Source: Nanobdellota archaeon (GTDB taxonomy: Archaea > Nanobdellota > Nanobdellia > Woesearchaeales > JAHJEM01). Taken from it: a stretch of 64,000 bases of DNA. The notes under the pieces are model-generated. The model did no database searches. It saw nothing but the letters and a program-made list of their open reading frames with translations, and was not told where the DNA came from. Within the stretch, counting starts at the first letter, position 1. Each line of letters starts with the position of its first letter. Both the position numbers and the translations under genes were made by a program. This document shows positions 22,799 through 64,000 of this stretch, one piece after another. The stretch spans positions 14,302-78,301 of the forward strand of contig JBDRSD010000039.1 in assembly GCA_043825215.1 (NCBI GenBank). The letters run 5' to 3'.

Positions 22799-23545
22799 TT
22801 ATCCGAGCTCCACCCAGAAGTAATACTGGGTCAGCGTGTTCTCCTCAGCCAATGTGTGCCCATCCTCAGGGACAAGCATCTGGAAGTCATGGGCCTCGCC
22901 ATCAAATCCTGTTGCCGTGTCGTTAATGACCGACACATAGACTATATCATGGTTGATATCATTCAAAATCACTTCAGCATACACATAAGGTGCTGATTGA
23001 GCTGCTCCACTCACATAGGTATAAGTCGTATAGCAGGTGTCTGCCTCTGTGATGTTCGCATTGCCCACATAGAACTGCGGGTGCGGATTTGCAGTTGAGA
23101 ATGTCGCTGAGATGTTGTCTGCGTCAGTCTCTTCCATGCCCATCGCGACCTCTTCCTCAAGGATCTTTGATGCATTCGAGCAGTTGACCCAATTGAAATT
23201 GACCGTGTTGACACGGGCTGCATAAACCTCTCCCTGGGTTGATCCTATACCCCACTTGTACAGCTGCTGGCCATTGGAATCTTCCAATGTGATGTTTCCG
23301 GTCACATTACCGTAGAAGCCCTGCCAGGCCTTGGTTATCTGGGTCCCGTTGATCTCGAGTTCAGATATGTTTCCTGCCTGCGCATACACGCTTCCGATGC
23401 TTCCACCAGACAGGTTTCCCCGTGTTGAGTTGAGCACGCCAACTTCTGCCCCTTCCGGGTTTGCGAGCGCCATTCTCACGCTTGCAAGGGCTATTGCTAG
23501 TGTCAATCCCACAAAAAGGATTGCGTATATTCTCTCTTTTTTCAT
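22799..23545 (-). CDS. Secreted ~248-aa protein, family member 2
   Basis: MKKERIYAILFVGLTLAIALASVRMALA. Motifs WQGFYGNVTG, GEVYAARV, DFQMLVPEDG. C-terminus YYFWVELG. ATGA overlap with the upstream HTH gene. Confidence 0.75.
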   Translation of the reverse strand: MKKERIYAILFVGLTLAIALASVRMALANPEGAEVGVLNSTRGNLSGGSIGSVYAQAGNISELEINGTQITKAWQGFYGNVTGNITLEDSNGQQLYKWGIGSTQGEVYAARVNTVNFNWVNCSNASKILEEEVAMGMEETDADNISATFSTANPHPQFYVGNANITEADTCYTTYTYVSGAAQSAPYVYAEVILNDINHDIVYVSVINDTATGFDGEAHDFQMLVPEDGHTLAEENTLTQYYFWVELG

Positions 23546-46000: not shown

Positions 46001-49000
46001 GAACGGCCTGTCACGTTCAATGTCAGGTATGCAAGGGAGATGTTCCAGTTGCCTGCAAGGTCTCTCGCAAAGAGCTTTAAGCCATGAAGCCCGGCAAACC
46101 AGGAATTGTTCACCGTGAACGTGTAATTCGTCCAATTCCCCGTGTATGGTGGGGAGATATTCACGTTCTCAAGTGTCGCACTCGTCCCATTGAAGCGCGC
46201 ATAGCTGTAGTTAATCTCCTCATTCCACAACGCATAGATCGTTGTCGTCGGGCTTGCTCCCTTCGTGACGGCGTAGGACGTCAAGCCGTAGGAAAGATTG
46301 TATGGCGCATAGATGTCAGACCCTTCAGGAAGGGTGTTCAATTCCTCAGATATCTCATCATTTCCTGAGGCATTATAAAATATCGTCGGCGCATCATTAA
46401 TCCTGCAATACATCATCTCAATGCCTGTTGAATAATCAGCATAAGAATACGTTGCATAACCAGTGCTGTTTGTCGTATTTGTCCCAAGTGGGGTTGTCGA
46501 ATTGTAGAAGTAAACAGTATAGTTGGCTATTCCTGCAAGGCTGAGATTGTCCCTGACAAGACAGGTGATGTTGGTCGTGTTCGTCTCGAACATGCTCATC
46601 GGATCAAGGGTTATCGACGCTGCATCAGCCCAGCCCCAGACCTGGAACGGGTACGTCTGAGTCCCATTCTGGTTGTTTGAGGTATCATTTGCGAAGATCC
46701 GCCAACCGAAGATCCCTCTTGTTGAAGCTGCCCCGAAAGCAACAGAGAAATTCGAGACATACATAACCGAATCATTCAGGTCTATCGGGCTTGCAAGCGA
46801 GCTGTTCTGATACGTTCCTGTCTCATTGGTGGAGAAGACTGCCGTGTCCAGGGCAAGATTGTCATACCATGTCGTCCAGAAATAGGCTGTCTCTCCCTTA
46901 TGGATGATAAGGCGGCTCTGGTTCGTGTTATTGTAATAAGGAGGCGAGCCCTCCTGCGTGAAGAGCGATGCGATCTGGCTGTACGTGCCTGACCTGTTGT
47001 AATAAATGGCAGGCTCGTCTTCTATCACGCAGGTCATGTTCTCGCTGCCGGCAGAAGTGTCTGTATAGAGGAATGTCGCGTATCCTGAAGCGTTGGTCAT
47101 GTTCGTGCCGATAAGGCCTGTCGAATTGAAAAATGAGACCGTGTAATTCGCGATTCCTGCAAGGGTGATGTTATTGACGACTTTGCAGGTGATGGTTGTC
47201 GAGCCGGACTCATTTATCAGGGCTGGCGTCAGGTTGATGGACGCAAGGCTCGCATATGCCCAGACCTCAAATACCAGGTAGGGAAGCGTGTCGTTCCAGT
47301 TATAATTCAGGTCCTCTGCATATATCTTTGCGTAATGGATGCCCAATGTCCAGTTCTCTGACGTGTTTATGGTGTAGTTGCTCCAATTTTTCGGGTTCGG
47401 AGACGGAAGGGTTACCGAATAATTCGTCATGGACTGGTTTGTCGAATTATACTCGATCGTCGCTGACTCGAGCGTCTCGTTCCAGCGGGCAAAGACTGTC
47501 AGGTTCTCGCGGGTATGGACAATTCGCGGGGACACATTGTAGGTGCTGTTGAAAAGTACAGGAGGAATGCTCTCTGTCTCAATCACCCAGAACAGGGAAG
47601 AATCATGCTCGCTGTACTGTGCGTTTATAACGTCGAAACTCACAGGATAATACCCGGAAGTGTTCTGCGTGAGATTAAAGATGTAATAGAATGAAACGAT
47701 ATCAGGCGCGACAGAAATGCCACCCTGGGACGTGTTCCATGAGATATTTCCTCCAGTGAAGTTCCCGCTCGAATAGTTGTCTGTCCCGACAGCATAATAG
47801 ATATCTGAGATGGTTGACACATTCCAAAGCCCGCTCAATCCCTTATGATAGATATCCGCGGTTGAGATCGTCCAGTCCTGGATGCTCTCCTCAAGGTTGT
47901 CAACGATGACCTCAACCCTATAGGACCGATTCGTATACAGCCTGAACGTGGCATTCAGGCCCTGATCGATCAGATAGGCTGTGCTCTGATTCGTATCAGA
48001 GACATTTGTTATATCGTAGACACGGAGAGCATTCATGTCAAGGCTCACCGGGGATGGCGTTATCTGGAAGACGTAGGATGCATTGAAATAAGAGCCGTTA
48101 TCCATGCGCAGAATATTCTCGTAATAATCCCTGATCTCAGCATAGACCCGATAATACCCATTCTCCCTCGTCATGGTGTCGAAAGAGCCTGAATCATTCC
48201 AGGGAGTCGTCAGGTCAAATGGCTGCGTGTACTCAAAGGAGCGCAAGGTGGCATTCAGGATATCGTCGACAACGGTCTCTTCCTCCACCCACACCCCAGA
48301 ACTATTGAAATCAACTCGCATAAGGAGGTAGCCATCCATCGGATACTGGTTTATGATCACGCTCGAGCCCAGCTGCTGCGTCGACTGGAGCGATCCCTTC
48401 TCCGCACTCGGCTGGTTTGAGAGCATCGGCCAGATAGTATCAAGGTCGCTCCTATTTCCAGCCTTTCGCCAGAACGTGATCGTCACATACTCTCCAGCCG
48501 GAACGACGATGGAATAATTCCGTCCCCACACAGGATAGCCCCTCCCAGTCCAACCAACACCCGCAGTGTCCTCACTTCCAACAGGGATATTCTGGGGAGT
48601 TCCCTCTGCAGTGCAGCCAAACCCCTCAAAGTCATGGATATGCACTTCTGGAGGGATGGAAAGAGAATCGTTCACATACACGTACCCTGTGTCCAAGTAA
48701 GTCGCTGCAGGCCGGTAATTCTGCAGCCATGGCTCTCTCGACTGAAAGTTCATGATGTGCTGCTCTGTGCAGCCGTTACATACTGTCGGGGATCCTGCCG
48801 CGTCCGCATACCGGTAGTCATACGTGCCTCCCCCGTCAGCTCCGCCGAACTCCACCCTGATCGAGATGTTTGTCGTATTCTTGTTCTCGATGACATATTG
48901 CGTCTTTGCGAGGTAGCTGAAGTTATCATCCTGGAAGCTGCCATTGTACACGCTCATCATCTTGTTGAAATAGACACCATTCGTATAATCGTACTTGAAG

Positions 49001-52000
49001 CGGACAGTCGACCTGTACGCGTCCTGGGAAAGGAACGACTTCTGCGGCACGGGCTCGCTTGCCATGTTCTTGCAGGTCGTCGCGCTGTCAATGTTCGACC
49101 ACAGCACAGTGCCAGACTTGTTGAACCCGAACGAGAGCAGCTCATACCTCTCCATCTCAGTAGCCGTCGACCAGTTGTTTGCAGTGTACGCCCACTGCTG
49201 GTCACCCTGATCCTCGAACATGATGCCGTAATTGCTCGCATTTCCAGCAGGCATCAGGCACCAGGTATCCGTATAGGGCGAATTCGGCTGCCTACAATAC
49301 CCATACCCTGAATACATGGTCCTGTTCACGCCATAATCAGACAGGTTCTTAGCACTCACATTGCGCGAGAGATTGTTGAAATAGACATAATACATCCGGG
49401 ACTCGCTAGCAGTCAGGTTAACGAGGAAAGTGACTATCGCCGTGTCATTGTCAAACCAGTCCACCTGGACAGGCAGCTCGTTCCTGAACTCATCTGCCAC
49501 ACGAATGCTATCATTATCAAGGCTTGTCACATTGGCGAGGTAATCATCAAAGTCAACCCAGATATCCATGGGAAAATCATTCCTGTCAAACCCGTTCCCG
49601 GAAATGTTGTATGGAACCCTGTACTCCCACTGGTAGTCCCACCAGTCGGTCAATGTCGCGCCCTGGGTCAGGTTCACCTGCTGGTTGATGTCATAGGTAT
49701 CCTTTTCTGTCTGCACCTTCACATCCCCAGACGCCCTGACGTAGAACACGTCAGACGAAGAAACAGTGACCTCCTGAGTGGTATCTCTAGCATATACATA
49801 AAATGAATAATTGCCCCAGGTCCATGTCTGATTGAAAATCGCGCGATATGTATTTCCTCCCATCAAAGTTAATGACATATTAGATGTCGCATTATTAGGA
49901 TAGGTGACCATAATCACTGTCTCCTCCAATCCGTCCTCATCATACATGTCCACAGAGACAGTCACGTTCCGGCCATACCCCACAGTCTGCGGTTCAACTG
50001 TCAAATTACCTATCGTCGTCGCCTGCGTCACTGTTATGTTCAAGAGCCCATAAGAAGGAGTCAGGTACCGTGCAGCATCCCCAGCAAAGCTTACATTCAG
50101 GGTGTGCACGCCCACACTCGCATTCGCAAGCACATTATACTCGAAGGAACCGACACCAATGCCGTTGGTCACGTTCGATCCGATGAGATAACCATCTGTC
50201 ATGTCCCTGAACGTGACCGTCTCGCCAGACATGAGCGTCCCATTATCCCACTGCAAGGTGCCTTTCAACTCAATTCGCGCGCCCTGCTTGGGGTTTGAAT
50301 TGTTTGATTCAAACAGTGAAAATGACGGACGCGCATACACGTCAATAACATACTCTGCAGCAATCCCCAACTTATCAGCAGCAGTCACGTTCAGGCGCAC
50401 TGTCTGAGAACCCAACGCAGCATCACTATCCAGGATGACTGTCGTGTTCCCCCACAGATAAGCAGTCTCATTCAAGACAGTCTCGTTGAACGATGCAGGA
50501 GTCATGTTTGTCCAACCTCCCGGAAACGTCCAATTCAGGGTCACGTTGTTTGCAGGGGTCGTGTCCGTATTCTCAGCATAACCCAAGAAAGTGAAATTCC
50601 CATATGCCCTGGTTATCGTCGTCTCATTATTCACAATGTCTGTCAGAAGGGCTCCTGGGACAAGTACCCTGAACTGGCGCGACTGGCGCTGGGTGAGGTT
50701 TCTCACTTCACCACCAGGATTCATATACACTATAGTCACATTGGCATAATACGTGCCGACAGGAACCGATGCATTCGTCGAGATGTTGAACGATGCCTTT
50801 TCCCAAAATCCTGCAGAGATACCCGCATACGAGCAGGTCTGCGAGGGGGCGGCAGACTTGCAGAAGCAGGCAAGGCCTGTCACATTGGGGCAGTTTACAG
50901 TGAAGTTCACGAATGTCAGGTCAGATAGCCAGGGATTCATGAGCGTCACGTTATACGTTGTCGACTCGTTCTGGTAGATCAGCGACGGGGAGATCAGGGA
51001 TGACAAATTGTACAGCAGGTTATGGATCCTGAAGTAATTCGAGAAATTACTCACCTGATTGCCATTCGCATAATCAATCAAGATATCCCAATAGAAACTA
51101 TATGTCCCCGGAGACGCGCTTGAGGGGATGCGATACCCTGCTGACGAATTATCGAATCTTCTCTCACAAGACGCCCCCTCTGCAAGATCACCGCAGGACT
51201 GCGTCTCATCAGGACCCCAGGACACATCAATAAGATTATAATCAAGCACGTTCAATGAAAGATTCACATCTATCGCTGTGATATTGTTGTTCTGGATCGT
51301 GATATTCACCCACTGCAAGGTATCCCCTATCTCATACTCATTGATGCCGTGCTCATACTCGTTCTCATGCTCAACAGACGTGATAGTGATATCTGGCGAG
51401 CCAATCTTGAATGGATAATATGCTGAGAAGGGAGTCACCCCATCAAGAGTGAGCAAGTCCGATACGTTATCTCTTATCGTCGCATACACCCTGTACTGGC
51501 CCTTCTCATTGAGCTGGGTATTCCATGCGCCCTTATCATCCCACGTCTGGTTCAGATACAGGGTCGTCATATTGATAAAAGTACGAATCGATATCGGGGG
51601 AAGCAGGTCATTAACGACAGGCGTTCCCACATTCGCCCAGGTACCGCTCACATTCTTCTGTACGCGCATCACCAGATATGCCTTGAAATCAGTCGTCCCT
51701 GTATTGTCGACGACAGAATACCTGGTGACTTGCGTCTCAGCCCCACCGACAGTGACTCCCGGGACATTGGAAAGCAATGGATAATACGTATCAGGGGTTG
51801 CCGTATCAATCGTCCTCCAATACGTGATGATCTTCCTGCCTCCCGCAGGGACAGTCATGCTGTAATTGCCCCATACCTGATACCCTTTCTGCAGCCAGCC
51901 GACGCCTGCCCTGTCTTCAGTCCCATTCGGGACATTCTGCGGCATGCCCTCTGCAGAGCATGCGAACGACTCATGGTCATGCATGTGCGCCTGCTGCGGG

Positions 52001-55000
52001 ACGCTCACCGAATCATTGACATATATCCAGCCCGTGTCAAGGTACGTCTGGAAGGGCCGCGTATATGCGATCCACGGCTCACGGGACTGGAAATTTGTTA
52101 TGTGCACTTCAGCACAATCATCGCAGGTGACCGGGTTTCCAGCGCTATCCGGGTAAATATATTTATAATTGCCATTCCCGTCATAACCCGACAGGTCTAT
52201 CCTGATGGTCGCATTTGATGCGTTCTCGTTCTCGATGATATACTCGACCTTTGCAAGCTTCTCAAAGAGCCCTGATTGGTACGTCGGATTGAACACGCTC
52301 ACCCGTTTCTTGAAAATGATGCCTGACCTGAAACCATAATCAAAGGACACCGTACCCTTGAACCCCTGCTCTGTAAAAAAGGACATGTTCGGAGAGGGAG
52401 GGGAAGTCATATTCCCGCAGGTCGCTGCCGCACCGATGATCGACCAGTTATCTGCAGTTCCCACACGGTAACCGAATGAAAGGAACTCATGACGCTCCAT
52501 CTCAGTAATGCTTGACCAATTATCTCCAGAATACTGCCACTGCATATCCCCCGCCTGCTCAAGCATGATCCCATAATAGGAAGAGCTGCCCCCAGGCATG
52601 AGGCAGTAATTGTCTGTGTTTCCCTGCGGCTCACGGCAGCCAATTCCAGACCAATAGGTTCTTGTCACCCCATAATCAGCAAGAGTCTTCTCAGGCTTCG
52701 GGGATACAGTAGTATCATAATAAAGATAGTATTGGTCATTTCCATCTGTTGTCGTATTCACAAGGAACGTGATAATCGCAGTCGAATCATCATACCAGTC
52801 GATCTGGCGGGGAACCTCCTCTGATGTCGAATTTCCTGGAGCGTAAATGAGACGAGTCGAATTCTTGTCCACGTCCGAAACGTTCTCAAAACTAACCCAG
52901 ACCTCAACAGGAAACTCAGTCCTATTACTCCCTGCTGAAGAAACTGTCAAAGGAAGCCTGTATGCCCAGGAAAAATTCCACCAATTCGTGGTATTGATCT
53001 CACCCAGGAGATCCACCTGCTCATTTGACCCATAGATGTCCTGTTCAGTCGTCACCCTGAATGTCACATTCAAGTCAATCGTAAAAGAAGAGGTGTTCGT
53101 CCACGTCAAGCCAGCCGTGTCATTCGCCGTGACAGTCACATTATGCACACCATACATCCATGTCGACTCAAAGATATACGTGTACATATCTTTTGTCAAA
53201 TTAGTCATGACATAGATTTTCGAGCTGCCGTTTGGCTTTGTGATATTCACAATCACCGTATCAGTTAAATTCAGGTCATCAGTCACATTCGCCGTGATAT
53301 TGACCGGATACCCATAACCAAGATACGACGGTGAGACCGAAAGAGTGTTGATTCTCGGCTTGAAATTGGAGATGTTGACCGTAAGAGTTCTTTGCGTCCC
53401 GTTTCCGATATTTCCTGCAGTATCTGTGCAGTTCACCTGCCAGGAATAGATCCCGTTAGAAAGTGCCTGCAAGAATTCAATGGTCTGACCCTGAGTGATG
53501 TTTGAATCATTCTGGTAGACAGTATTATTGATAATGAGGGAACAATTGGCAACCTCGAGGAGATTATCAGTCACATTAAACGTGAAAGAGAGATCCGCTT
53601 CCTCAGTCTGGTTGTAATAATCCTCCGGTGTGATGAGAGTGATATTTGGCGCCTCCTGATCGACAGCAAAATTCCATGCAGAAGAGGAAGCAGTATTATT
53701 GAAGCCATCCCAGCAGGACAACGACCAATTATACAGCCCGGTTTCAAATCCATACACTGACTGGTTTGTGACAGAATCATTTGTCTGATTCATCAATGAA
53801 ACATTGACTTCATCAGCAATGCTCAGATTGCAAAGCAGGTAATCCCAGAAATTATCTGAGGCATTCCATGTGAAATTCAGCTCAGTTGACGAGGTATTAT
53901 AAAAAGCCAAGGGATACATCATATTGATATCTGGCGCATCTGCATCAACAAACAAGTACCGTGTCAAGTCTCCTGTGCTTCCCTGATAGGTGAGGTTCAC
54001 CCGGACAGAATAATTCCCTGTCTGATTAGGGCTTGTGAAGATATATAAGTAATCACCGAACTCATCAGTTGTTATCCCATAGATAAGGGTGACATTGTCC
54101 ACAATCGGCGACACGGTCACATTTACCGTCGTGAGATTGATTCTCCACTGCACATACCGTCCATATTGCGATGAAAGGTTAGTTCCATACGGCTCGAGGG
54201 AGAGGTTCGAGAGGTTATCTGAAGACCGCAATTCATAGCCAACACTCGCCCCAGACGGAACACTTATGTTCTGGATGACAAGGGACCCATAAAACACATC
54301 ATCCCTTCCTGCATCAAATATCTGTGACTCCAGGTTTCCATAAGATGAGTAATCCACGTGATACTCTGGGATGATCACCCCCCCGTCACCAAGATAAATA
54401 TAATTATCTTTTCTCGCCACATGGTTCGGATTCAAGGGAATCTCAAACTTTGTCTTCAGGACAGGAGTTGACCAATTTGAGATGTCAACGACAAGCATCT
54501 CATTCCAAGCAGTATCACCAGGACCGCCATACTCATCAGCAAGATAGAGATGACCATCAAACCAGGCGATTCCCTCTCCATAATAATCATCACCTGCGTC
54601 ATACGGGTCAAGAGTGTCGCCGTTGATCGTGCCATTTGCAGCACCATTAGTCTTATTATACCTATAGATGAGACCGCCTCTTGTGTTGCAGTAGACAAAG
54701 TCAGGGTCAACGTCGATGCCAATACAGTTCGTCGAATCAAAGCTGCTCTGCCACGTAAACGTATTCCCATTACTCGACACGTAATACTTGTGGATGTTGC
54801 CGCCATTGTACGTCCAGTCCTGAGACCAGAAGACAGCAGTGCCTGACGTGTTCAGGCTTTCCGTCTCCCACTTGTCAAAGGCAATCCCCGTGTACACTGT
54901 TTCAAAGGTTCCCCCTGTAGGACTGCTCACATAGTTGAAATCCTCACTAAATTTCCTGATATACGGATTTCCTCCGGACATGGATGCGAAAAAGAAGTAG

Positions 55001-58000
55001 TTTGCGTCAAAGCCAGACTCTATCGCAGGAGCATAGGTGAAACCCCACGCGGCAGTACCTGCAGAGGCAGTATTATTCTGGACAAAGGTCGCATTCTGGG
55101 AATGATTATACCGCAACCTGAACGAATCATCAGAGACATAGACATCATTCTTCGTGCCATTGTTGAAATCCTCATCCAAGGTCTGCAACCACTGCGAACC
55201 GCCTGCTATAAGAGACCCATTCAACCAGATATTCAAAGGAGCAAAGGTCGCATTCCCTCCAGAGGTTGTCTCAGCATGGCCATATACTGTCACATTCATA
55301 TCAGGCCCTACAGCATACTGGTCCAGGTATTCAGTCATCACAAGAAAGCCGATAGTGCCATTATAGGTCATGTTCAAGCCATCAGCATCGATCGCAAAGA
55401 CACTGTAGTTCCACGCGCCATATTCATCTATTGTATAATTGATCGACTTCCAAATACTGCCGTTCAAATACGTACCATTCAGATTATATACAACAACATC
55501 GAACGGATTAATCAAGGTAAAATTGACTGATACGAGGTTATCATCAGTCACATTCGCCCTCAGATTGAACTCAGTATCATACATGACCGCATCAGGATCA
55601 GTCCAGACATCCTCAATAATAGGACCCTGGTAGACCTTGATGTTCAGGCGCTTCTCGCCATAAATGCCCCTGAAAGTCGTGTTGACGATAACATCGTATG
55701 ACCCGCCGACAGTCGCATTGAACGTCACATTATAGTCCCCATTCGCATCAGTCTTCGCCCCGTAAAAAAGGGTCGAATTGATGAGCGTGGGTGTGAAGTT
55801 CCTGTCTGTCGTCGTCAGGTTGTAGCGCAATTGCGCATACCTTCCCCGCTCAAGCGAGGCATCTTCAGTCCACGACGCGACAAGAAGGGCAGCAACACTC
55901 TCACCTGAGCGTATCTCAGCAGAAATATTGGTTCCAGATCCCATCACACCGGACCAGTTGATCTCATAAAGAGGTGCTGTCTGCTCGGTATCGAAAATCT
56001 CGCTGATGATTTCACCAGAAGACTTATACTGTATCCTATACTTGTGGAATGTCGTTCCTCCATCGCCAAGCCAGAAGTATGAACCATTATTGGCCATGAA
56101 ATTCGCAGGATAGGCGCCAGCGAACTTGGTCTCGATGTTCGGATTGCTCCAATCCGTAATGTTCAAAACTATTATCTCGTCCCCATACTCATCATTCAGA
56201 TAAAGGTGATTGTCAAAATAGAAGATGCCCTCACCATAATAGGAATCCCCGCCGCCATCAAGCGTGTCCATGTTGATCGTGCCCATCGCGGTTCCCGACT
56301 TGTTATACCTATAGATCGAGCTTGTCGTTGCTGTCGGACGATCCCTTGTATTGCAGTAGATGTAATTCTCATCAACAGCAATACCGATGCACCTGTCGCT
56401 TGACCAGGAATCATACATTGCCCAGGTCGTCCCATTGTCTGTGACCAAATACCTATGCATCTGATAATTGTAGGTCCAGTCCTGGGTCCAGAAGACAGCA
56501 GTTCCCGACTGATTTAATAGGGCAGTTTCCCAGGGATCAAAGATGACAGCAGTATATATCGTGTTTGTCAGCCAGCCTGTCGGCGAATCCAGGTAGAAAA
56601 GCGTGCTGTTGAACCGCTGAACAGTATTTGCGGTCGTGAAGAAAAAGTAATCATTATCAAAACCTGATTGCGCTGCAGGGGCAAAAGTCATGTCCCAATC
56701 AGGAGGATTGGAGCCCACCTGCGATCCCAGATATGCAGACTGCGAGCCATGATCATACGCAAGCGTGAGGTTGTATGGGTTTAAGGTCAGGTTCTGATGC
56801 GTGCCATTGTCAAAATCAGCCTCCTCATCATACGTCCACTCCCGCACGCCATCAACAACGAGGACATCATCCAAGTAGACTGTGAATGGGTTGTTCGACG
56901 CATTCGTGCCATTGGATAGGTTGATATGACCCCACACACTCACATTATCGTAGAGGTTGACAACACTATTATCCAACTGGCCGCTTACCTCTAAAAGCTC
57001 AATTATCCCGCTCACATTATCCGTATACCCAAGAGCATCAGTCGCGAGGATCGTGTAATTGTATTGGAGGAATGATGTTATCGCAGAAGAGAGTGACGTC
57101 CATGTCATCCCACCACCCTTTGTGCCATTGAGATTATACACTATGTTTCCATCAAAATCAATCAGAGTGAAATTTACAGAGACCAAATCGTTATCCACGA
57201 CAGTCGCTGCAATAACAAAGTCCGCAGGATTATAAGGCGAGATTGGAGTCGTCGACCAGTTCGTGATATTCGGGCGCTGGATAACCGTGAAATTCTTCCT
57301 CGCCTCACCATAGATCCCATCATACGTAGAATTGACCAAGATCTCATACACACCACCAAATCCGGGAGCAGTAATCGTATAATTATAATCCCCATTACTA
57401 TCAGTAGACGCGCCATAGTACAAGGACACATTATCCACAATTGGGGTGAAATTGGCATCAGCCGTCGTCAGATTGATCCGCCACTGGGCAAAGCGACCGG
57501 CCTGGGTTGAAAGGTCAGTCGTCCACAACGCCGAACTCACCGCGGCATAACTTCCAGCAGACCGCATCTCAAAGGTGATATTTCCGGTTGCAGGAGTGGA
57601 ATTGATAATCTTAAATCCAGTATACGCAGGAGTGCTCAGGTTCGTGTTGAAAATCTGCGATACCAGATTCCCTGCATTCGCATACATGAGCTCGTACTTA
57701 TACAGCGTCACACCGCCATTACCCATGAAGATTGTGCCATTCCTTCTCGCAAGCTGATTAGGACCAGTGGTCAGGTTCGTTCCTGAAACATACACAGGAC
57801 TATCCCAATCAGAGATGTCAACAATGTGCAGCTCGTTCCAGGTTGTCGTGGGAGTTCCGCCATACTCATCCGCAAGGAAGAGATGATTGTCATACACGAC
57901 AATTCCCTCTCCATAATAATCATCACCGGCGGAATAGGGATCAAGCGCATCCATGTTGATGTTCCCTGCGGCAGTGCCATTCTTGTAATACCTATAGACT

Positions 58001-61000
58001 GCAGTCGCGCCAGCCGAGGGATTGCCACGCGTATTGCAATAGATATACGTGTCATCAACATCAATCCCTATGCAGTTGGTCGAATCAAAAATCGAAACCC
58101 ACGTCCAGGTGAGGCCGTTATTCGTAACATTATACCTGTGGATATTCGCCCCGTTGTTCGTCCAGTCCTGCGCCCAGAAGACAGCTGTACCTGATGTATT
58201 CAGAATGGCTGTCTCATACGGGTCAAAAGCAAGTCCTGTATAAATGGTGCTCGTGTTAAAGCCGGCAGCGTTTCCAACAAAAGAATACGCGTCATTGTAG
58301 ACATTGAGGACATTCTGCGTGGAGAAAAAGAAATAATTCGCATCAAAGCCAGATTCTGACTTGTGCGCATAGGTAAATCCCCAATCACCTGGATCTGAAT
58401 TCAACGTGGCTGTGCCGGAGTAGTAGGGACTTGTGCTGTAGTCATAGCCAAGGAAGAATGTACTGTTCTCGACGACCACATTTGACGCGTTTCCTGCATT
58501 GAAATCAGCATCCGAGTACTGCAGCCACGCATTGATTCCGCCAACACGAAGGACGCTATTGATATAGATGTAGATCGGATTATTGCTCACATTTGTCCCA
58601 TTGGAGATATTGATATGCCCGAAGACCGTGACATTCTCAGAAAGCCCGACCGTTTCCGGGGTATTGTTGAGCGTCACCTGCATCATCTGCAAGATCCTCG
58701 TCACCGTGTCATTGAAGCCTGTCTGGTCATACGCAAAGATGGTATAATTCCACGTCTGGTAGGAATCTATGGAATAAGAGGGCGACGTCCAGATGCTTCC
58801 CGCTCTTGTCCCGTTCTGGTTGAAGATGATGCTTCCGTTCGGGTGATTCAACGTGAAATTCACCCCGAGAATATTGTCATCAGACACATTTGCCTTGATG
58901 ACAAAAGAGCGGCCATAATACGGGTAGGATGGCACGGTATAATGATCCTCTATTGACGGGAACTGGTAGATGGTAAGGGACGATGTACTCTCGCCGTACA
59001 CTCCCTGGAATGTCGAATTGACAAGCACTTCATAGACACCTCCCAAAGACGGTGCCGTTATCGCGTAGCAGTAATTCCCATTTGCATCAGTCTGCGCACC
59101 ATAGGTGAGCGACACATTCCTTATCGTCGGCGTCTGCCACGTATTATTCGTCGCAAGCGTTGCACGGTACTGGGCATACCTGCCATTCTCCCCGGACAAG
59201 TTGGAGGTGAAATTCTTGTACGTCAGGTTCGCGGCAATAGGCGCGCTTCTCATCTCCAGGATAATCGAGGTGTTTGTCTCGGAAATGTTCGACGAATACA
59301 ATGATAAGTAGGACGGCGAGACCTGGCCTGTATCAAGCACCGTAGATATGAACTCTCCCTGAGGAAAATAGGGAATCCGATAATTATAGATATATCCAGA
59401 GCCTGCAGAGACAAAGATGTCAGACCTGTTCCTCGCAAGCATATTGATGTCCGGCGCGTACGCCCAGGTCGTGAGAAGGACAGGACTGCTCCAATCTGAC
59501 ACATTCAGGACAAGGATGTCATCAGAATTATCATTCCCAAGATACAGGATGTTCTTATACTTGACAATACCTTCCCCGCTGTATCCTGCAACAATGGCAT
59601 TCACATTGATAGATCCTGCCGCTGCCCCACCCTTCGTGAAGCGATAGACGCTCGCCCCATTGGCAAAGCGCGTATTGCAATAGATGTACGATTGATCGAC
59701 ATCAATCCCTAAGCAAGGCCTTGGACTCGAGCTAAACAAGGTCGAATCATCCCTCACCCAAGTAGCACCATTATTCGTGACATTCCAAGCGTACACCTGG
59801 TACGATGACCAGTTCTGCATCCAGATGACTGCACGACCCTGGCTCGCATTGGATAGCCAGGGATCAAATGCCATTCCAGTATACCATCCCGCTGTCGTAT
59901 TGCTGAGCGACTCCACCCAATTGAGATATGTATTGAACCGGCGGACCTGGTTCAAGGTGACTGAGAAGAGATAATCCTGATCCCAACCACTCTCCTGCTT
60001 TGGAACAAATGTCATGTCATATGTCGCGTACGTCACGATGCTGGAATGATTCCTTACATCAATGGGATCAGCAGTGTAGTTGTGCGAAAGCACCAGGGTA
60101 TTATTCATCTCGTGATAGAACGTGTCATTTCCAAGGGTCACATTATACCTTGTCCCTGCAAGATAATCCGCAAGGACAGACTGGGACCACGTCGACACAT
60201 CTCCCAGCTGCAGCACGTCGTTCAAATAGATGAAGATCGGATTATTGGTCACATTCGTCCCATTGGACAGGTTGATATGCCCACACACAAGAACCTCCTC
60301 TTCAAAATCCGCAATCTCAGGTGTGAGATTCATAGTTACCCACATCGTCTCAAAAAAGCCATCATAGGTATCATTGAACCCGTCACCATCCTGGGAATAG
60401 ATGGAGAAATTCCACGTCCCATGCACATCAACAGCGTGGCTCGGACTTGTCCAGATATCGCCAGACCGCGTGCCATTGCCAATGTATGCCAGGGAACCGT
60501 TCGGATAATACAAGGTGAATGTCGCAAAGACAGGATTGTCATCAGAGATGTTCACCTTTATGGTGAAGTTATCAGGATAATACGGCGATACCGGATTGAA
60601 GAACACAGAAACAATCTCTGGCGGCTTAAACGCGTGGATGCGCACCCGATTCTCACCATAGATGCTGTTATACGTCGTATTGACGATGACATCAAAATAC
60701 CCGCCAGAACTCAACGAAAGGGTTGTGATATTATAATCCCCGTTCTCATCCGTCTTCACGCCATAGGAAATGTTCACCCGGGAAACCTCAGGGCTGACAG
60801 ACGCATCAGTCGTGTTCAGGATGATCTTCCACTGGATATACCTACCCTGCGTCGTTCCGAGCGTGGACTTCCAGGATGTCGCATTGAGGTCAGCAAGGTC
60901 ACCCGCAGCACGGATCATCCATGTCATCTGGGAAGCGGAAGGAGTTGTATTCGTTACTGCGATGTCTGTGATGAGCGGGGCGAACTGCCCCGTATCAAAC

Positions 61001-64000
61001 ACCTGGGAAACCAGGTTCCCTTCTGTGACATGCTGCAAGCTATAAGCAATAACAGTCGCACCCCCGTCCACTGCATAGATAGTCGTGCCATTTCGCATCA
61101 GCTTGTTCGGCGCAAAAGGCAGGGAGAACTTATTGACAAGCACAGGATTATCCCAATCAGAGATGTTCACGACAACAACCTCATTTCCAACCGTGTCTCC
61201 CAAATACAAGTGATTGTCATAGACGACAATGCCCTGACCGAAGTAGCTGTTCCCACCACCATCAAGCGCGTCCATATTGATCGTTCCCGCATCAGTGCCA
61301 TTCTTGAAATAGCGATACACCATCGTCGTCAAAGCAGCGGGGCGATCTCGCGTATTGCAATAAATATACGTATCATCAACATCCAGCCCGATACAGTTCT
61401 GCGAAGTGAAATCATATGCGGGACCATCATCAGTCCACGAAGCACCATTATTCGTTACAGTCCAGCGATTGATCTCATATCCAGTCCAGTCCTGGCTCCA
61501 GAATATCATCTCGCCTGAACTGACATTCGATTCCCACGGATCAAACGTCAATCCCGTGTATATCTCAGCAGATACGGTCTCTGTTCCCATATAGACCCAA
61601 TTACCTGTCCAGCGCTGCAAGGCATTACTTGTCGCAAAGAAAAGATAATCCTGGCTCCATCCGGTCAGGTTCTGCGGAGCATAGGTCGCACCCCACGCAT
61701 ACGGCGTCGGAACAAGAGTGTAGTTTACCGCATTCACCGGATCAACACTATGGTTTATTGACAGCTTGAAATAATCATCCCAGCCCGGCCAAAGCCCGGA
61801 CCAGATAGCGATATTATCATACTCACCTGCTGTAAAATCAGTATCATTCTCCTGTATCCACGACGAGATGCCGCCAGCGACCAACGTATTATTGATATAC
61901 ACCCAGATGGGATTGTTCGCAGCATCAGCACCTGAACTGATGTTCACATGGCCCCAGACGGTCAGGTTCTCCTCGAGAAAGACCTCTGTCGGCGTGACAT
62001 TCTCCGAAACCCACAACGTGAGGATATAATCTGATGCGTTTCGCGAATAGTTCGCCTGGTCCATCGCAACGATCGTATAATTCCACGTGCCATGCGCATC
62101 AAGGTTGATCGTCGGGCTTGTCCATAAGTCACCATTACGCGTACCATTCACATTATAAACTATAGAACCGTTTGGCGCAATCAGCGTAAAATTCACCCAC
62201 CAGACATCATTGTCAGTCACGTTTCCGGTGATATTAAAGGGGGCAATGTAATACGGGGAGGTCGGAGTGGTATAATGGGAATGGACAGTTGGCATCTCAA
62301 CGACAAGTATATTCTTCGTGTTCTCGCCATAGACCTCATCCTGATATGTCGCATTCACTTTCACTGTGGCAATCCCACCGACACCAGGAGCCTTGATCGT
62401 GATATTATAATTCCCAGAAGAATCGGTTGCAGCACCATAGCGCAAGATGATGTCATCAACAAGAGCAGATGATGAGAGGTTTGTCGTCGTCAGGTTCACG
62501 CGCATCTGCACATACCTTCCATGGGTAGCGGAAATGTCAGTCGTGTAGGTCGCATTCGCAATATCTGACAGGAAGATCGCCGACCGGATCTCCTTTGTTA
62601 TTGCCGTATCTGCAGGAGTCGTATTGATGATGTTGAGAAGAGAATACGAGGTTGCTCCTTGCTCTGTATCATAGACTTCAGACGTCCATTGGGCAAATGA
62701 GACATACGGTATCTGGTAGCGATAGAAAATCGTATTTCCCCCATTCACGTGCATAACCGTATCCACGCGAGCAAGGCTGTTGATGTCCAGGCCATGATAC
62801 CATCTCGCATCCAATGTTGGCGTATTCCAGTTCGTAATGTCAACGACAACAACCTCATCGCTCGTCACGCTCCCATTGTCATTTCCAAGGTAGAGGTGGT
62901 TATTGTAGTACGCTATCCCTTCCCCGTCATAGCCAACAACAAGGGATGCAATGTCAATATTTCCTGCAGCGGTGCCATTCTTATAATACCTATAGACTGC
63001 CGAGACAGGAGTTCTCGTGTTGCAATAGATATACGTCTCATCCACGTCAATACCAATGCAATTGGTCGAATCAAACCAAGAGACCCACGTCCAGGTATCA
63101 CCGTTGTTCGTGACATTCCAGCGGTGGATGTTCGCTCCGTTATTTGTCCAGTCCTGCGTCCAGAAGACAGCAGTCCCTGACTCGTTCAGGAGAGCTGTCT
63201 CGTAGGGGTCGAACGCGATGCCAGTATAGACCGTGCTCAGGTTGAAGCCTGAAGGGTGGCTCTGCCAGGTATAGGTCGTGTCAAACTTGTCAATCAGGTT
63301 GTTTGTCACGGTGAAAAAATAATTCTGCACAAACCCTGACTCGCTCGCGCTCGCATAGGTATTATCCCAGGGGGCAATGCCATGCGTCGTCGTGAGCGTT
63401 CCGAGAGTCACCGGATCAGCAGTATAATTCACTTCTGCGCGGAACGTGTCATCAAAGACATAGATCTCATTCTTTGTCCCGTTATTGAAGTGGGTATCAT
63501 TCGTCCGGTTCCAATAATTGACCCCGCCCGCCTGGAGCTCATCATTGAGATATATCCATATCGGGTTGTTAGCGACAGTTGTGCCATTTGAGAGATTTAT
63601 ATGGCCAAAGACCGCAACGTTCTCATAGAAATTTGCGATTACCGGCGGATCGACATCCTCTGAGACCTGCATCACCTGCAAGACACCTGAGAGAGACTGC
63701 GAGAATCCTGTCGCGTCCATTGCAAGAATCGACCAGTTCAAGGAGCGATAAGAATCAATCAGATGGGATTGCGAATTCCAGATGTCACCTGCCCGTGTGC
63801 CATTCGCATTATAGATCAAGGACCCATTCTGGTCAGTGAGCGAAAAATTCACATAATACAAGTTGTCATCAGTCACATTCGCATAGATGACAAACGAATT
63901 ATTGAAGTAGGGAAGCGCGGGGATAAACCATTGCTCAGTTATATTTGGTCCCTGCAGGATGAGCAGGTCCTGCGATGCCTCACCATAGAGGCCATTATAC
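43075..64000 (-). CDS. Giant exported protein, at least 6975 aa in the window. The 5' end is beyond the right edge. The N-terminal half is a tandem array of ~550-aa modules. The C-terminal half has two DUF2341-like domains, Ig-like arrays, CARDB and the same C-terminal domain as the 4510-aa protein.
   Basis: The track ORF begins at a GTG at 63876, but I read the frame by hand as open to 64000: YNGLYGEASQDLLILQGPNITEQWFIPALPYFNNSFVIYANVTDDN. DUF2341-like domains: WWNFSWAYRLPLTVSS...YYLYYDT and WWDYQWEYRVPYNISGN...YVYFNN. CARDB: NVTVSVVIFNEGVRDAENFTVQFFNYTG...VDAPLETNGTVAEANEENNNASQTFTV. C-terminus ...DIVVFYGEIR. Confidence 0.85.
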   Translation of the reverse strand, partial: YNGLYGEASQDLLILQGPNITEQWFIPALPYFNNSFVIYANVTDDNLYYVNFSLTDQNGSLIYNANGTRAGDIWNSQSHLIDSYRSLNWSILAMDATGFSQSLSGVLQVMQVSEDVDPPVIANFYENVAVFGHINLSNGTTVANNPIWIYLNDELQAGGVNYWNRTNDTHFNNGTKNEIYVFDDTFRAEVNYTADPVTLGTLTTTHGIAPWDNTYASASESGFVQNYFFTVTNNLIDKFDTTYTWQSHPSGFNLSTVYTGIAFDPYETALLNESGTAVFWTQDWTNNGANIHRWNVTNNGDTWTWVSWFDSTNCIGIDVDETYIYCNTRTPVSAVYRYYKNGTAAGNIDIASLVVGYDGEGIAYYNNHLYLGNDNGSVTSDEVVVVDITNWNTPTLDARWYHGLDINSLARVDTVMHVNGGNTIFYRYQIPYVSFAQWTSEVYDTEQGATSYSLLNIINTTPADTAITKEIRSAIFLSDIANATYTTDISATHGRYVQMRVNLTTTNLSSSALVDDIILRYGAATDSSGNYNITIKAPGVGGIATVKVNATYQDEVYGENTKNILVVEMPTVHSHYTTPTSPYYIAPFNITGNVTDNDVWWVNFTLIAPNGSIVYNVNGTRNGDLWTSPTINLDAHGTWNYTIVAMDQANYSRNASDYILTLWVSENVTPTEVFLEENLTVWGHVNISSGADAANNPIWVYINNTLVAGGISSWIQENDTDFTAGEYDNIAIWSGLWPGWDDYFKLSINHSVDPVNAVNYTLVPTPYAWGATYAPQNLTGWSQDYLFFATSNALQRWTGNWVYMGTETVSAEIYTGLTFDPWESNVSSGEMIFWSQDWTGYEINRWTVTNNGASWTDDGPAYDFTSQNCIGLDVDDTYIYCNTRDRPAALTTMVYRYFKNGTDAGTINMDALDGGGNSYFGQGIVVYDNHLYLGDTVGNEVVVVNISDWDNPVLVNKFSLPFAPNKLMRNGTTIYAVDGGATVIAYSLQHVTEGNLVSQVFDTGQFAPLITDIAVTNTTPSASQMTWMIRAAGDLADLNATSWKSTLGTTQGRYIQWKIILNTTDASVSPEVSRVNISYGVKTDENGDYNITTLSLSSGGYFDVIVNTTYNSIYGENRVRIHAFKPPEIVSVFFNPVSPYYPDNFTIKVNISDDNPVFATFTLYYPNGSLAYIGNGTRSGDIWTSPSHAVDVHGTWNFSIYSQDGDGFNDTYDGFFETMWVTMNLTPEIADFEEEVLVCGHINLSNGTNVTNNPIFIYLNDVLQLGDVSTWSQSVLADYLAGTRYNVTLGNDTFYHEMNNTLVLSHNYTADPIDVRNHSSIVTYATYDMTFVPKQESGWDQDYLFSVTLNQVRRFNTYLNWVESLSNTTAGWYTGMAFDPWLSNASQGRAVIWMQNWSSYQVYAWNVTNNGATWVRDDSTLFSSSPRPCLGIDVDQSYIYCNTRFANGASVYRFTKGGAAAGSINVNAIVAGYSGEGIVKYKNILYLGNDNSDDILVLNVSDWSSPVLLTTWAYAPDINMLARNRSDIFVSAGSGYIYNYRIPYFPQGEFISTVLDTGQVSPSYLSLYSSNISETNTSIILEMRSAPIAANLTYKNFTSNLSGENGRYAQYRATLATNNTWQTPTIRNVSLTYGAQTDANGNYCYAITAPSLGGVYEVLVNSTFQGVYGESTSSLTIYQFPSIEDHYTVPSYPYYGRSFVIKANVSDDNILGVNFTLNHPNGSIIFNQNGTRAGSIWTSPSYSIDSYQTWNYTIFAYDQTGFNDTVTRILQMMQVTLNNTPETVGLSENVTVFGHINISNGTNVSNNPIYIYINSVLRVGGINAWLQYSDADFNAGNASNVVVENSTFFLGYDYSTSPYYSGTATLNSDPGDWGFTYAHKSESGFDANYFFFSTQNVLNVYNDAYSFVGNAAGFNTSTIYTGLAFDPYETAILNTSGTAVFWAQDWTNNGANIHRYNVTNNGLTWTWVSIFDSTNCIGIDVDDTYIYCNTRGNPSAGATAVYRYYKNGTAAGNINMDALDPYSAGDDYYGEGIVVYDNHLFLADEYGGTPTTTWNELHIVDISDWDSPVYVSGTNLTTGPNQLARRNGTIFMGNGGVTLYKYELMYANAGNLVSQIFNTNLSTPAYTGFKIINSTPATGNITFEMRSAGSYAAVSSALWTTDLSTQAGRFAQWRINLTTADANFTPIVDNVSLYYGASTDSNGDYNYTITAPGFGGVYEILVNSTYDGIYGEARKNFTVIQRPNITNWSTTPISPYNPADFVIAATVVDNDLVSVNFTLIDFDGNIVYNLNGTKGGGMTWTSLSSAITSFLQYNYTILATDALGYTDNVSGIIELLEVSGQLDNSVVNLYDNVSVWGHINLSNGTNASNNPFTVYLDDVLVVDGVREWTYDEEADFDNGTHQNLTLNPYNLTLAYDHGSQSAYLGSQVGSNPPDWDMTFAPAAQSGFDNDYFFFTTANTVQRFNSTLFYLDSPTGWLTNTIYTAVIFDPWETALLNQSGTAVFWTQDWTYNYQMHRYLVTDNGTTWAMYDSWSSDRCIGIAVDENYIYCNTRDRPTATTSSIYRYNKSGTAMGTINMDTLDGGGDSYYGEGIFYFDNHLYLNDEYGDEIIVLNITDWSNPNIETKFAGAYPANFMANNGSYFWLGDGGTTFHKYRIQYKSSGEIISEIFDTEQTAPLYEINWSGVMGSGTNISAEIRSGESVAALLVASWTEDASLERGRYAQLRYNLTTTDRNFTPTLINSTLFYGAKTDANGDYNVTFNATVGGSYDVIVNTTFRGIYGEKRLNIKVYQGPIIEDVWTDPDAVMYDTEFNLRANVTDDNLVSVNFTLINPFDVVVYNLNGTYLNGSIWKSINYTIDEYGAWNYSVFAIDADGLNMTYNGTIGFLVMTEYLDQYAVGPDMNVTVYGHAETTSGGNATFAPLNIWLNGSLIAGGSQWLQTLDEDFNNGTKNDVYVSDDSFRLRYNHSQNATFVQNNTASAGTAAWGFTYAPAIESGFDANYFFFASMSGGNPYIRKFSEDFNYVSSPTGGTFETVYTGIAFDKWETESLNTSGTAVFWSQDWTYNGGNIHKYYVSSNGNTFTWQSSFDSTNCIGIDVDPDFVYCNTRGGLIYRYNKTNGAANGTINGDTLDPYDAGDDYYGEGIAWFDGHLYLADEYGGPGDTAWNEMLVVDISNWSTPVLKTKFEIPLNPNHVARKDNYIYLGDGGVIIPEYHVDYSSYGNLESQIFDAGRDDVFYGSLVIQNISVPSGASVGYELRSSDNLSNLSLEPYGTNLSSQYGRYVQWRINLTTVNVTVSPIVDNVTLIYGITTDEFGDYLYIFTSPNQTGNYSVRVNLTYQGSTGDLTRYLFVDADAPDINMMYPLAFYNTSSTELNFTWNASDNFWDYLLCNLSIADEVNVSLMNQTNDSVTNQSVYGFETGLYNWSLSCWDGFNNTASSSAWNFAVDQEAPNITLITPEDYYNQTEEADLSFTFNVTDNLLEVANCSLIINNTVYQNDSNITQGQTIEFLQALSNGIYSWQVNCTDTAGNIGNGTQRTLTVNISNFKPRINTLSVSPSYLGYGYPVNITANVTDDLNLTDTVIVNITKPNGSSKIYVMTNLTKDMYTYIFESTWMYGVHNVTVTANDTAGLTWTNTSSFTIDLNVTFRVTTEQDIYGSNEQVDLLGEINTTNWWNFSWAYRLPLTVSSAGSNRTEFPVEVWVSFENVSDVDKNSTRLIYAPGNSTSEEVPRQIDWYDDSTAIITFLVNTTTDGNDQYYLYYDTTVSPKPEKTLADYGVTRTYWSGIGCREPQGNTDNYCLMPGGSSSYYGIMLEQAGDMQWQYSGDNWSSITEMERHEFLSFGYRVGTADNWSIIGAAATCGNMTSPPSPNMSFFTEQGFKGTVSFDYGFRSGIIFKKRVSVFNPTYQSGLFEKLAKVEYIIENENASNATIRIDLSGYDGNGNYKYIYPDSAGNPVTCDDCAEVHITNFQSREPWIAYTRPFQTYLDTGWIYVNDSVSVPQQAHMHDHESFACSAEGMPQNVPNGTEDRAGVGWLQKGYQVWGNYSMTVPAGGRKIITYWRTIDTATPDTYYPLLSNVPGVTVGGAETQVTRYSVVDNTGTTDFKAYLVMRVQKNVSGTWANVGTPVVNDLLPPISIRTFINMTTLYLNQTWDDKGAWNTQLNEKGQYRVYATIRDNVSDLLTLDGVTPFSAYYPFKIGSPDITITSVEHENEYEHGINEYEIGDTLQWVNITIQNNNITAIDVNLSLNVLDYNLIDVSWGPDETQSCGDLAEGASCERRFDNSSAGYRIPSSASPGTYSFYWDILIDYANGNQVSNFSNYFRIHNLLYNLSSLISPSLIYQNESTTYNVTLMNPWLSDLTFVNFTVNCPNVTGLACFCKSAAPSQTCSYAGISAGFWEKASFNISTNASVPVGTYYANVTIVYMNPGGEVRNLTQRQSRQFRVLVPGALLTDIVNNETTITRAYGNFTFLGYAENTDTTPANNVTLNWTFPGGWTNMTPASFNETVLNETAYLWGNTTVILDSDAALGSQTVRLNVTAADKLGIAAEYVIDVYARPSFSLFESNNSNPKQGARIELKGTLQWDNGTLMSGETVTFRDMTDGYLIGSNVTNGIGVGSFEYNVLANASVGVHTLNVSFAGDAARYLTPSYGLLNITVTQATTIGNLTVEPQTVGYGRNVTVSVDMYDEDGLEETVIMVTYPNNATSNMSLTLMGGNTYRAIFNQTWTWGNYSFYVYARDTTQEVTVSSSDVFYVRASGDVKVQTEKDTYDINQQVNLTQGATLTDWWDYQWEYRVPYNISGNGFDRNDFPMDIWVDFDDYLANVTSLDNDSIRVADEFRNELPVQVDWFDNDTAIVTFLVNLTASESRMYYVYFNNLSRNVSAKNLSDYGVNRTMYSGYGYCRQPNSPYTDTWCLMPAGNASNYGIMFEDQGDQQWAYTANNWSTATEMERYELLSFGFNKSGTVLWSNIDSATTCKNMASEPVPQKSFLSQDAYRSTVRFKYDYTNGVYFNKMMSVYNGSFQDDNFSYLAKTQYVIENKNTTNISIRVEFGGADGGGTYDYRYADAAGSPTVCNGCTEQHIMNFQSREPWLQNYRPAATYLDTGYVYVNDSLSIPPEVHIHDFEGFGCTAEGTPQNIPVGSEDTAGVGWTGRGYPVWGRNYSIVVPAGEYVTITFWRKAGNRSDLDTIWPMLSNQPSAEKGSLQSTQQLGSSVIINQYPMDGYLLMRVDFNSSGVWVEEETVVDDILNATLRSFEYTQPFDLTTPWNDSGSFDTMTRENGYYRVYAEIRDYYENILRMDNGSYFNASYVFQITPSPVSLDMNALRVYDITNVSDTNQSTAYLIDQGLNATFRLYTNRSYRVEVIVDNLEESIQDWTISTADIYHKGLSGLWNVSTISDIYYAVGTDNYSSGNFTGGNISWNTSQGGISVAPDIVSFYYIFNLTQNTSGYYPVSFDVINAQYSEHDSSLFWVIETESIPPVLFNSTYNVSPRIVHTRENLTVFARWNETLESATIEYNSTNQSMTNYSVTLPSPNPKNWSNYTINTSENWTLGIHYAKIYAEDLNYNWNDTLPYLVFEVWAYASLASINLTPALINESGSTTITCKVVNNITLAGIANYTVSFFNSTGLIGTNMTNASGYATFLYTDTSAGSENMTCVIEDEPAIYYNRSGTYSQIASLFTQEGSPPYYNNTNQSRLIIHKGETAYFWTTWYDNLALDTAVFSTNETGTYQNSSLASPIDLNDSVMYVSNFSVAFGAASTRGIFGWRIFANDTSNNQNGTQTYPFQVWGWADAASITLDPMSMFETNTTNITCLVRDNLSLAGIANYTVYFYNSTTPLGTNTTNSTGYATYSYADYSTGIEMMYCRINDAPTIFYNASGNDEISEELNTLPEGSDIYAPYNLSYGLTSYAVTKGASPTTTIYALWNEEINYSYARFNGTSATLENVNISPPYTGNWTNYTFTVNNSWFAGLHGLKLFARDLAGNWNISLAYLTLNVTGRSKVYWDSPSGIVTTNFVDMKCNVTDKHSGVPIQNYQVYLYNGSYDLIDTTMTNAQGQATFNVNVTGEEGEEVYTCEIDNQEKLSYIVNKTLNDHVASQTLTFGRVPPTIVLHEPEQNYYTQIRNVSFNFTVFDDNSSYAICDFFMDSYERVSNFNVSNNTVYNVTMTNISDGIHTWYVGCVDTFNNPNSSETRTFRVDYGPPTITLLSPPNNGYSNQDSALFSYRPQDYGNITACSITIDGILNRTNTSILNNQTNTFSLDNLSLGFHNWSINCTDNSVKMGNSTVWNFSYDPTDPSIEVIYPTQGLIILNNTVNFTWIATDSFDDNMTCRLVLDAFYYDWMEVDNNTITNYSLSSIIDGNHEMYIECYDTASNTNVSETINFATSLAPYLIVNYPMNNTWNSSVNHTISYNVTDNDDINNCSLWLDESLNDTDNAVENNQENFFTLENLEQGWHNWSIVCYDTSVTESNGTTGNISLYIDFTQPEPNITTANGTWFRNASPEIFFNITDNMDWIINYTFFINGTRNTTGQVNLRNISNVTNTTSDILANLTDDTYFLVLEAFDRARNVKNSTNRTIYVDTVAPTIILNSPIYYENVSSPIVTLNYTVNESRSHNTSCNLTIDHALYNATTVVQGEEYVINVFTFSIGLHYWNVSCVDLAGNYNVSETYFFNVTSADLLVNSGNITLNDSDLIERKNVTVSVVIFNEGVRDAENFTVQFFNYTGNKTSQIGQNFTIPYLNASMNMTLNVTFNLTLGFNNFRVIVDAPLETNGTVAEANEENNNASQTFTVGFWMFVAGNTTVEKALRSQSNSTIYNWTPFGENGTNIYIADIDSQVSFFSLKALGRDTNNLSQPDDFPEADTALGSSSYVDNITVTYTVGGVPIALRNYTIFAKDVANVSVVNSTNMTTFETGLLWDASDGGTEYAGTQDLVLITAVNEGMESFAGISDFEIRIPATLRELTGTNDIVVFYGEIR
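53700..64000 (-). repeat. At least six in-frame tandem modules of ~1.65 kb (~550 aa) inside the giant gene, continuing beyond the window
   Basis: Recurring blocks NGTR(A/N/S)GD(I/L)W, NNPI(W/F/Y)IY(L/I)N, NCIGIDVD(E/D)TYIYCNTR, GEGI(V/A)(V/Y)YDNHLYLGD. NGTR sits at aa 27 and aa 578 of the track protein, giving a 551-aa period. Homologous antisense ORFs at 62749..63180, 57826..58194 and 54550..54846 give 1.66-1.8-kb periodicity. Confidence 0.8.

Follow-up and report, generated by a model that had tools for sequence, protein, structure and literature searches.

A giant gene of a DPANN-type archaeon encodes a likely surface protein with an old array of predicted propeller-bearing modules

The window analysed here (64,000 nt of contig JBDRSD010000039.1 from a Nanobdellota archaeon) encodes three giant ORFs on the minus strand (Table 1). 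G1 is a single ORF whose frame runs uninterrupted from position 63,999 to its stop codon, giving 6,974 codons in the window and an intact reading frame across 20.9 kb. The same gene is found in the Logan assembly, where contig SRR26275509_21341 matches the window at 99.986% over positions 23,540–53,078; the overlap ends at 53,078, and the module array (53.9–64 kb) lies outside this base-by-base comparison. The upstream gene call on that contig has 9,083 aa and is the same gene as G1. Since 6,974 aa fall in the window, about 2,100 aa, estimated to be three to four more modules, lie beyond its end. The whole array therefore comprises roughly nine or ten supermodules of ~553 aa each, six of them complete in the window, and the array region is the N-terminal two-thirds of one ~9,083-aa gene. 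Module 1 was also searched against GTDB genomes, JGI metagenomes and IMG/VR for sequence past position 64,000, with no match.

The C-terminal half of G1 carries the Ig-like domains Big_13 and Big_1 together with NPCBM_assoc and CARDB domains identified by Pfam, and contains two super-repeats of ~1,100 aa that exhibit 43% identity over 628 aa. The next gene, G2, matches G1 at the C-terminal end (32% over 346 aa), and the two share a C-terminal domain of ~190 aa. The third ORF, G3, runs off the start of the window and carries a DUF2341 domain; N-terminal signal or anchor segments are present in both G2 and G3. An alternative genetic code had been considered for the first 7 kb, which seemed free of ORFs, and is unneeded as this region is G3. 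A candidate antisense gene at 60,046–61,518 was rejected for lack of a Pfam match; this ORF is explained by the scarcity of TTA, CTA and TCA as sense codons. Scans of the window for tRNA genes and Rfam families found nothing.

Table 1. Positions of the genes, modules, predicted domains and repeat block in the window
Feature	Position	Strand	Basis or remark
G1, giant ORF	43075..63999	-	Stop TGA 43,077-43,075; N-terminus cut by window end
G1, non-array C-terminal half	43078..53952	-	Pfam, internal repeat, G1/G2 match
CARDB in G1	about 43,648-43,977	-	Pfam
G2, second giant gene, 4,510 aa	29546..43078	-	N-terminal signal peptide; ATG overlaps G1 stop (ATGA)
Array, six full modules and tail of a seventh	53,953-63,999	-	Inside G1
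End of a further upstream module, last 19 aa	63943..63999	-	YNGLYGEASQDLLILQGPN matches module end Y-x-G-I-Y-G-E...
Module 1 (aa 20-571 of in-window translation)	62287..63942	-	858.9 bits, profile positions 1-552
Module 2 (aa 572-1128)	60616..62286	-	847.4 bits
Module 3 (aa 1129-1682)	58954..60615	-	812.1 bits
Module 4 (aa 1683-2244), the one modelled	57268..58953	-	Module profile
Module 5 (aa 2245-2794)	55618..57267	-	851.4 bits
Module 6 (aa 2795-3349), final array module	53953..55617	-	818.6 bits
Module 4, predicted Ig-like sandwich	58,678-58,953	-	AF2 model
Module 4, low-confidence segment	58,417-58,677	-	AF2 model
Module 4, predicted five-bladed propeller	57,691-58,416	-	AF2 model
Module 4, predicted beta-sandwich	57,409-57,675	-	AF2 model
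Module 4, predicted small terminal domain	57,268-57,408	-	AF2 model
Block, module 1 copy (aa 255-347; predicted propeller blades 2-3)	62959..63237	-	Permutation test, sliding windows; repeat family D1
Block, module 4 copy (aa 1917-2013; predicted propeller blades 2-3)	57961..58251	-	Permutation test, sliding windows; repeat family D1

A tandem array of at least six modules continuing past the window had been described in a first-pass annotation of the region, and both points hold. A profile of the module recovers exactly six full-length copies in G1 (812–897 bits each) with a motif-to-motif distance of 550–562 aa, and the 19 aa preceding module 1 match a module end, so the array runs off the window. 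Downstream of module 6, the profile search identified no further full module in G1. The ~1.65-kb periodicity expected of such an array is apparent in the protein autocorrelation, which peaks at 554/562, 1112–1116, 1662–1674 and 2223–2225 aa (z 5.5–9.8), and more weakly in the DNA at lags of 1650/1662 (z ~4.5), 3336/3348 (z ~8) and 4986–5022 nt (z ~6). In addition, 13 direct-repeat families are spaced 1641–1689 nt apart or at multiples thereof. The module consensus includes VNFTLIxPNGSIVYNxNGTRxGDIW and YYGEGIVxYDNHLYLGD...VVDISDWSxP, in which the previously quoted motifs are present. The location of the array on the minus strand had been left unstated.

The domain composition of a module was predicted with an AF2 model of module 4 built on a six-sequence alignment (mean pLDDT 67; residues 93–179 and 516–562 not resolved). 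In this model the supermodule is composed of an Ig-like sandwich, a small low-confidence segment, a propeller, a beta-sandwich and a small terminal domain, in that order. Each module had been proposed to start with an Ig-like segment, and it is the whole-module model that supports this, with residues 1–90 forming eight strands at pLDDT 73–91. A separate model of N-terminal residues 1–185 reached a pLDDT of 35, which makes the Ig-like assignment weak, and no Pfam Ig family matched the modules better than E 0.05–0.1.

The propeller is predicted to have five four-stranded blades that close a ring of ~200–240 residues, and its modelled fold is glutaminyl-cyclase/YjiK-like with one LVIVD-type blade. 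Its nearest folds are mostly enzymes (glutaminyl cyclase, GH43 and paraoxonase), as would be expected if the propellers were catalytic and G1 were a tethered multi-enzyme, for example of glycoside hydrolases or cyclases acting on the host envelope, rather than an adhesin. Such a role is quite unlikely, as non-enzymatic propellers match nearly equally well, among them YjiK, NHL, nidogen, LRP, an archaeal S-layer YVTN propeller and the phi11 receptor-binding protein, and sequence identity to the structural matches is 8–14%. Furthermore, no enzyme family was identified in the modules by sequence, Pfam yielding LVIVD alone, and a PDB sequence search with the module profile gave no match at E <= 1.

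The LVIVD family (PF08309) matches three of the six modules at E <= 1, and one of the six passes the Pfam gathering cut-off of 20.2 bits (module 6 with 21.1; module 4 scores 13.4). In the other direction, two canonical LVIVD proteins, P0085 and P0093, are matched by the module profile with E ~1e-18, each time via profile positions 346–405. The LVIVD surface proteins (Adindla et al. 2004, PMC2447325) and the G1 modules share the blade GEGI..Y.NHLYL.D....VVDIS.W..P, which appears homologous to the 42-aa LVIVD unit in both search directions, and both occur in archaeal cell-surface proteins, as G1 most likely is. They differ in that the canonical proteins contain many tandem units, 12 each in P0085 and P0093, whereas each G1 module has one recognisable unit within a propeller of ~240 aa. 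With one LVIVD unit recognisable per ~553 aa, the G1 propellers are not formed from several such units in tandem.

The array had also been regarded as prone to assembly collapse and as expanding and contracting by recombination, and neither property agrees with the divergence of its modules. Between-module identity is 36–50% for protein and ~50% (48–53%) for DNA, pS is 0.63–0.85 across all module pairs, and the longest exact DNA match anywhere among the modules is 26 nt. DNA identity peaks at 78–81% in a block shared by modules 1 and 4, and across all module pairs no 40-codon window exceeds 81%. The near-identical repeat DNA, synonymous sites included, that concerted evolution would leave is not observed. 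The array is therefore old, with saturated synonymous sites, and with modules so diverged it is not an artefact of assembly, nor is it a homogenised repeat prone to recombination. Collapse was rejected on the longest shared k-mers and the independent Logan contig. That the array is an artefact of mis-joined or collapsed repeats is extremely improbable, and no evidence in favour of it emerged: the modules are too unlike for mis-joining, the reading frame has no break, and the single 9,083-aa gene of the Logan assembly fits the 6,974 aa in the window plus an upstream part.

The order of the modules also appears to be old. Only two short metagenome fragments, P0002 and P0006, from JGI contigs of 1,286 and 1,061 bp, exceed 50% identity to G1 modules. 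P0002, which spans a module 4/5 junction, matches module 4 at 56% identity, the start of module 5 at 66% and the others at 39–47%; for P0006 the values are 63% with module 5 and 42–50% with the other modules. Both look like position-specific orthologues (56–66% against 39–50% elsewhere), which suggests that the module order predates a species split and speaks against expansion and contraction. Paralogous modules are thus not more alike than orthologous ones, with orthology here inferred from the best matches of short fragments. Within the block, P0002 is 49% identical to module 4, and at alignment columns 331–370 it is 84% identical to module 6. From sequence comparison, the two fragments point to a conserved module order with occasional segment swaps.

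The block shared by modules 1 and 4 had been noticed as an almost identical stretch of ~70 aa and was ascribed to recent gene conversion or block duplication. The similarity itself was confirmed, with 62/70 residues identical, and it extends to ~95 aa (alignment columns 257–359). In a column permutation test the block scored 35.3, a value that none of 5,000 permutations reached; the pair ranked next scored 15.1. Bootstrap trees conflict, with modules 1 and 4 grouping at 79% within the block and modules 1 and 3 at 76% outside it, and beyond column 360 the similarity of modules 1 and 4 drops under the mean of the other pairs. The block is a genuine mosaic segment covering the predicted propeller blades 2–3.

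The putative exchange is not recent. No other DNA-level repeat in the region is as long as the block (family D1, 242 nt, 78% identity), and of its 58 identical residues 32 share their codon where codon usage predicts 23.4 (uncorrected P ~0.01), a slight excess that would suit a recent event. The synonymous divergence of the block (NG86) is however pS 0.67 and dS ~1.7, equal to that of pairs with ~52% protein identity in this region, while dN is 0.10 (dN/dS ~0.06); its DNA identity is just 78–81%, and modules 1 and 4 share exact matches of at most 17 nt. Recent conversion was rejected on codon alignments, NG86 pS/pN, same-codon counts and the 40-codon window scan. Recent homogenisation of the two modules, with unstable copy number and possibly a collapsed array, is highly improbable given these values, the 26-nt limit on exact matches across the array, the unbroken ORF and the agreement of the independent assembly over its shared part. 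Of the original claim, an exchange remains likely in view of the permutation test and tree conflict; recent homogenisation and a recent block duplication are not supported.

Alternatively, there may have been no exchange at all: unusually strong purifying selection would have kept blades 2–3 of modules 1 and 4 in their ancestral state as the remaining modules drifted. The block region is the most conserved part in every module pair (42–71% identity), module 4 is closest to all other modules, suggesting a slow-evolving, ancestor-like copy, and the saturated synonymous sites are as expected for old paralogues. This history is nevertheless rather improbable: the block tree conflicts with that of the rest of the module, the module 1/4 pair falls under the average of other pairs after column 360, and P0002 has 49% identity to module 4 in the block but 50–73% downstream, which fits poorly with a position-specific constraint. 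Because synonymous sites are saturated, the block is undatable and retention and conversion are not fully separable. Old inter-module gene conversion followed by strong purifying selection is the best reading of the block, and the near-identity of modules 1 and 4 comes from an old segment conserved at the protein level rather than from a recent conversion.

Most likely, G1 encodes a cell-surface protein that is secreted and heavily N-glycosylated, in an uncultivated archaeon of DPANN type, Woesearchaeota-like. It contains 411 NxS/T sequons against 131 in shuffled sequences (3.1-fold, z 31). No membrane anchor or hydrophobic segment was identified in the 6,974 aa in the window, the N-terminal 2,109 aa, and with them any signal peptide, lying outside it. 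The protein may form a long multivalent adhesion fibre in which the diverged propellers would be the heads, binding glycans or surface proteins on a host cell or substrate as their ligands, and the sandwich domains would serve as spacers. A giant surface adhesin with an old module array and an ancient exchange between modules 1 and 4 is the best joint explanation, and we consider it somewhat probable.

A bolder proposal, to which we give little credence, is that the fibre is a combinatorial host-recognition device with about ten diverged propeller heads, whose binding surfaces would be re-assorted by occasional blade-sized exchanges between modules; the module 1/4 block and the module-6-like segment in the module-4-like P0002 would be examples. 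If so, G1 would be to archaea what cassette-shuffled adhesins and receptor-binding proteins are to bacteria and phages, and blade exchange could decide which hosts are open to attachment by a DPANN episymbiont.

Genome-reduced DPANN archaea are thought to cling to their hosts mainly by means of giant repetitive surface proteins. To our knowledge, the domain anatomy of very few of these proteins has been worked out. G1 offers a clean anatomy, a five-part supermodule of ~553 aa with the predicted five-bladed propeller as its variable head, and its relatives fit other binding domains into the same scaffold. As G1 shows, a large array of this type can be both ancient and stable instead of evolving fast, and annotators should not write such genes off as assembly problems. 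The module boundaries are also useful for picking single modules for binding or structural work.

The relatives are giant proteins whose named sources are Woesearchaeota, Nanoarchaeota and Aenigmatarchaeota, with one labelled Omnitrophota and another Pirellulales; the DPANN assignment of the organism was drawn solely from such names. They were obtained by an exhaustive search of representatives; a word-indexed homologue search with module 4 or with the module profile gave just one or two matches, probably due to uninformative N/T/S-rich words. Profile hits numbered 1,632. The domain maps of eight relatives (P0003, P0004, P0005, P0007, P0010, P0012, P0017 and P0020) show the recurring scaffold of DPANN giant surface proteins, placed every 500–650 aa around other central domains. 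In the DUF2341/Laminin_G_3 giants of Woesearchaeota and other DPANN MAGs (3,000–7,000 aa; GIU70407.1, P0004, and MFH2019881.1, P0020), the homologous scaffold corresponds to profile positions 1–135/250 and 505–552 (E 1e-120 to 1e-43). The central domain is DUF2341 with Laminin_G_3, or GH130, in those giants, whereas in G1 it is the predicted five-bladed propeller followed by a beta-sandwich; Pfam identified neither DUF2341 nor Laminin_G_3 in the six modules or the rest of G1. The neighbourhood of G1 does hold paralogues, with DUF2341 in G3 and C-terminal domains in common with G2.

Other systems resemble G1 in fold or design. Bacterial/plant-type glutaminyl cyclase and the C-terminal domain of YjiK (PDB 3mbr, 3nok, 3qqz) have 11–14% identity to the propeller and are single-domain proteins, whereas the G1 propellers are repeated in a fibre; at the sequence level, neither Pfam Glu_cyclase_2 nor any solved structure matched the modules. 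Ectodomains combining Ig/FN3 domains with propellers (the archaeal S-layer YVTN and PKD protein 1l0q, Sevenless/ROS1 and the phi11 receptor-binding protein 5efv) have the same alternating design with other propeller classes and blade numbers at 9–14% identity, a design analogy and not family membership. DPANN archaea are already known to have giant surface proteins of the adhesion type (PMC10266531). The SPEARE-type proteins of Nanohaloarchaeota are 8,880–9,409 aa long, predicted to be extracellular and proposed to act in host attachment, with many Ig-like domains, a VirB4/TraG-like ATPase domain and a membrane anchor (PMC10266531). Pfam identified no VirB4/TraG-like ATPase domain in the 6,974 aa of G1 in the window, and the likeness to these proteins, by description and not by sequence, lies in similar size, DPANN origin and Ig-like domains. 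G1 is a further member of the already known giant DPANN surface proteins.

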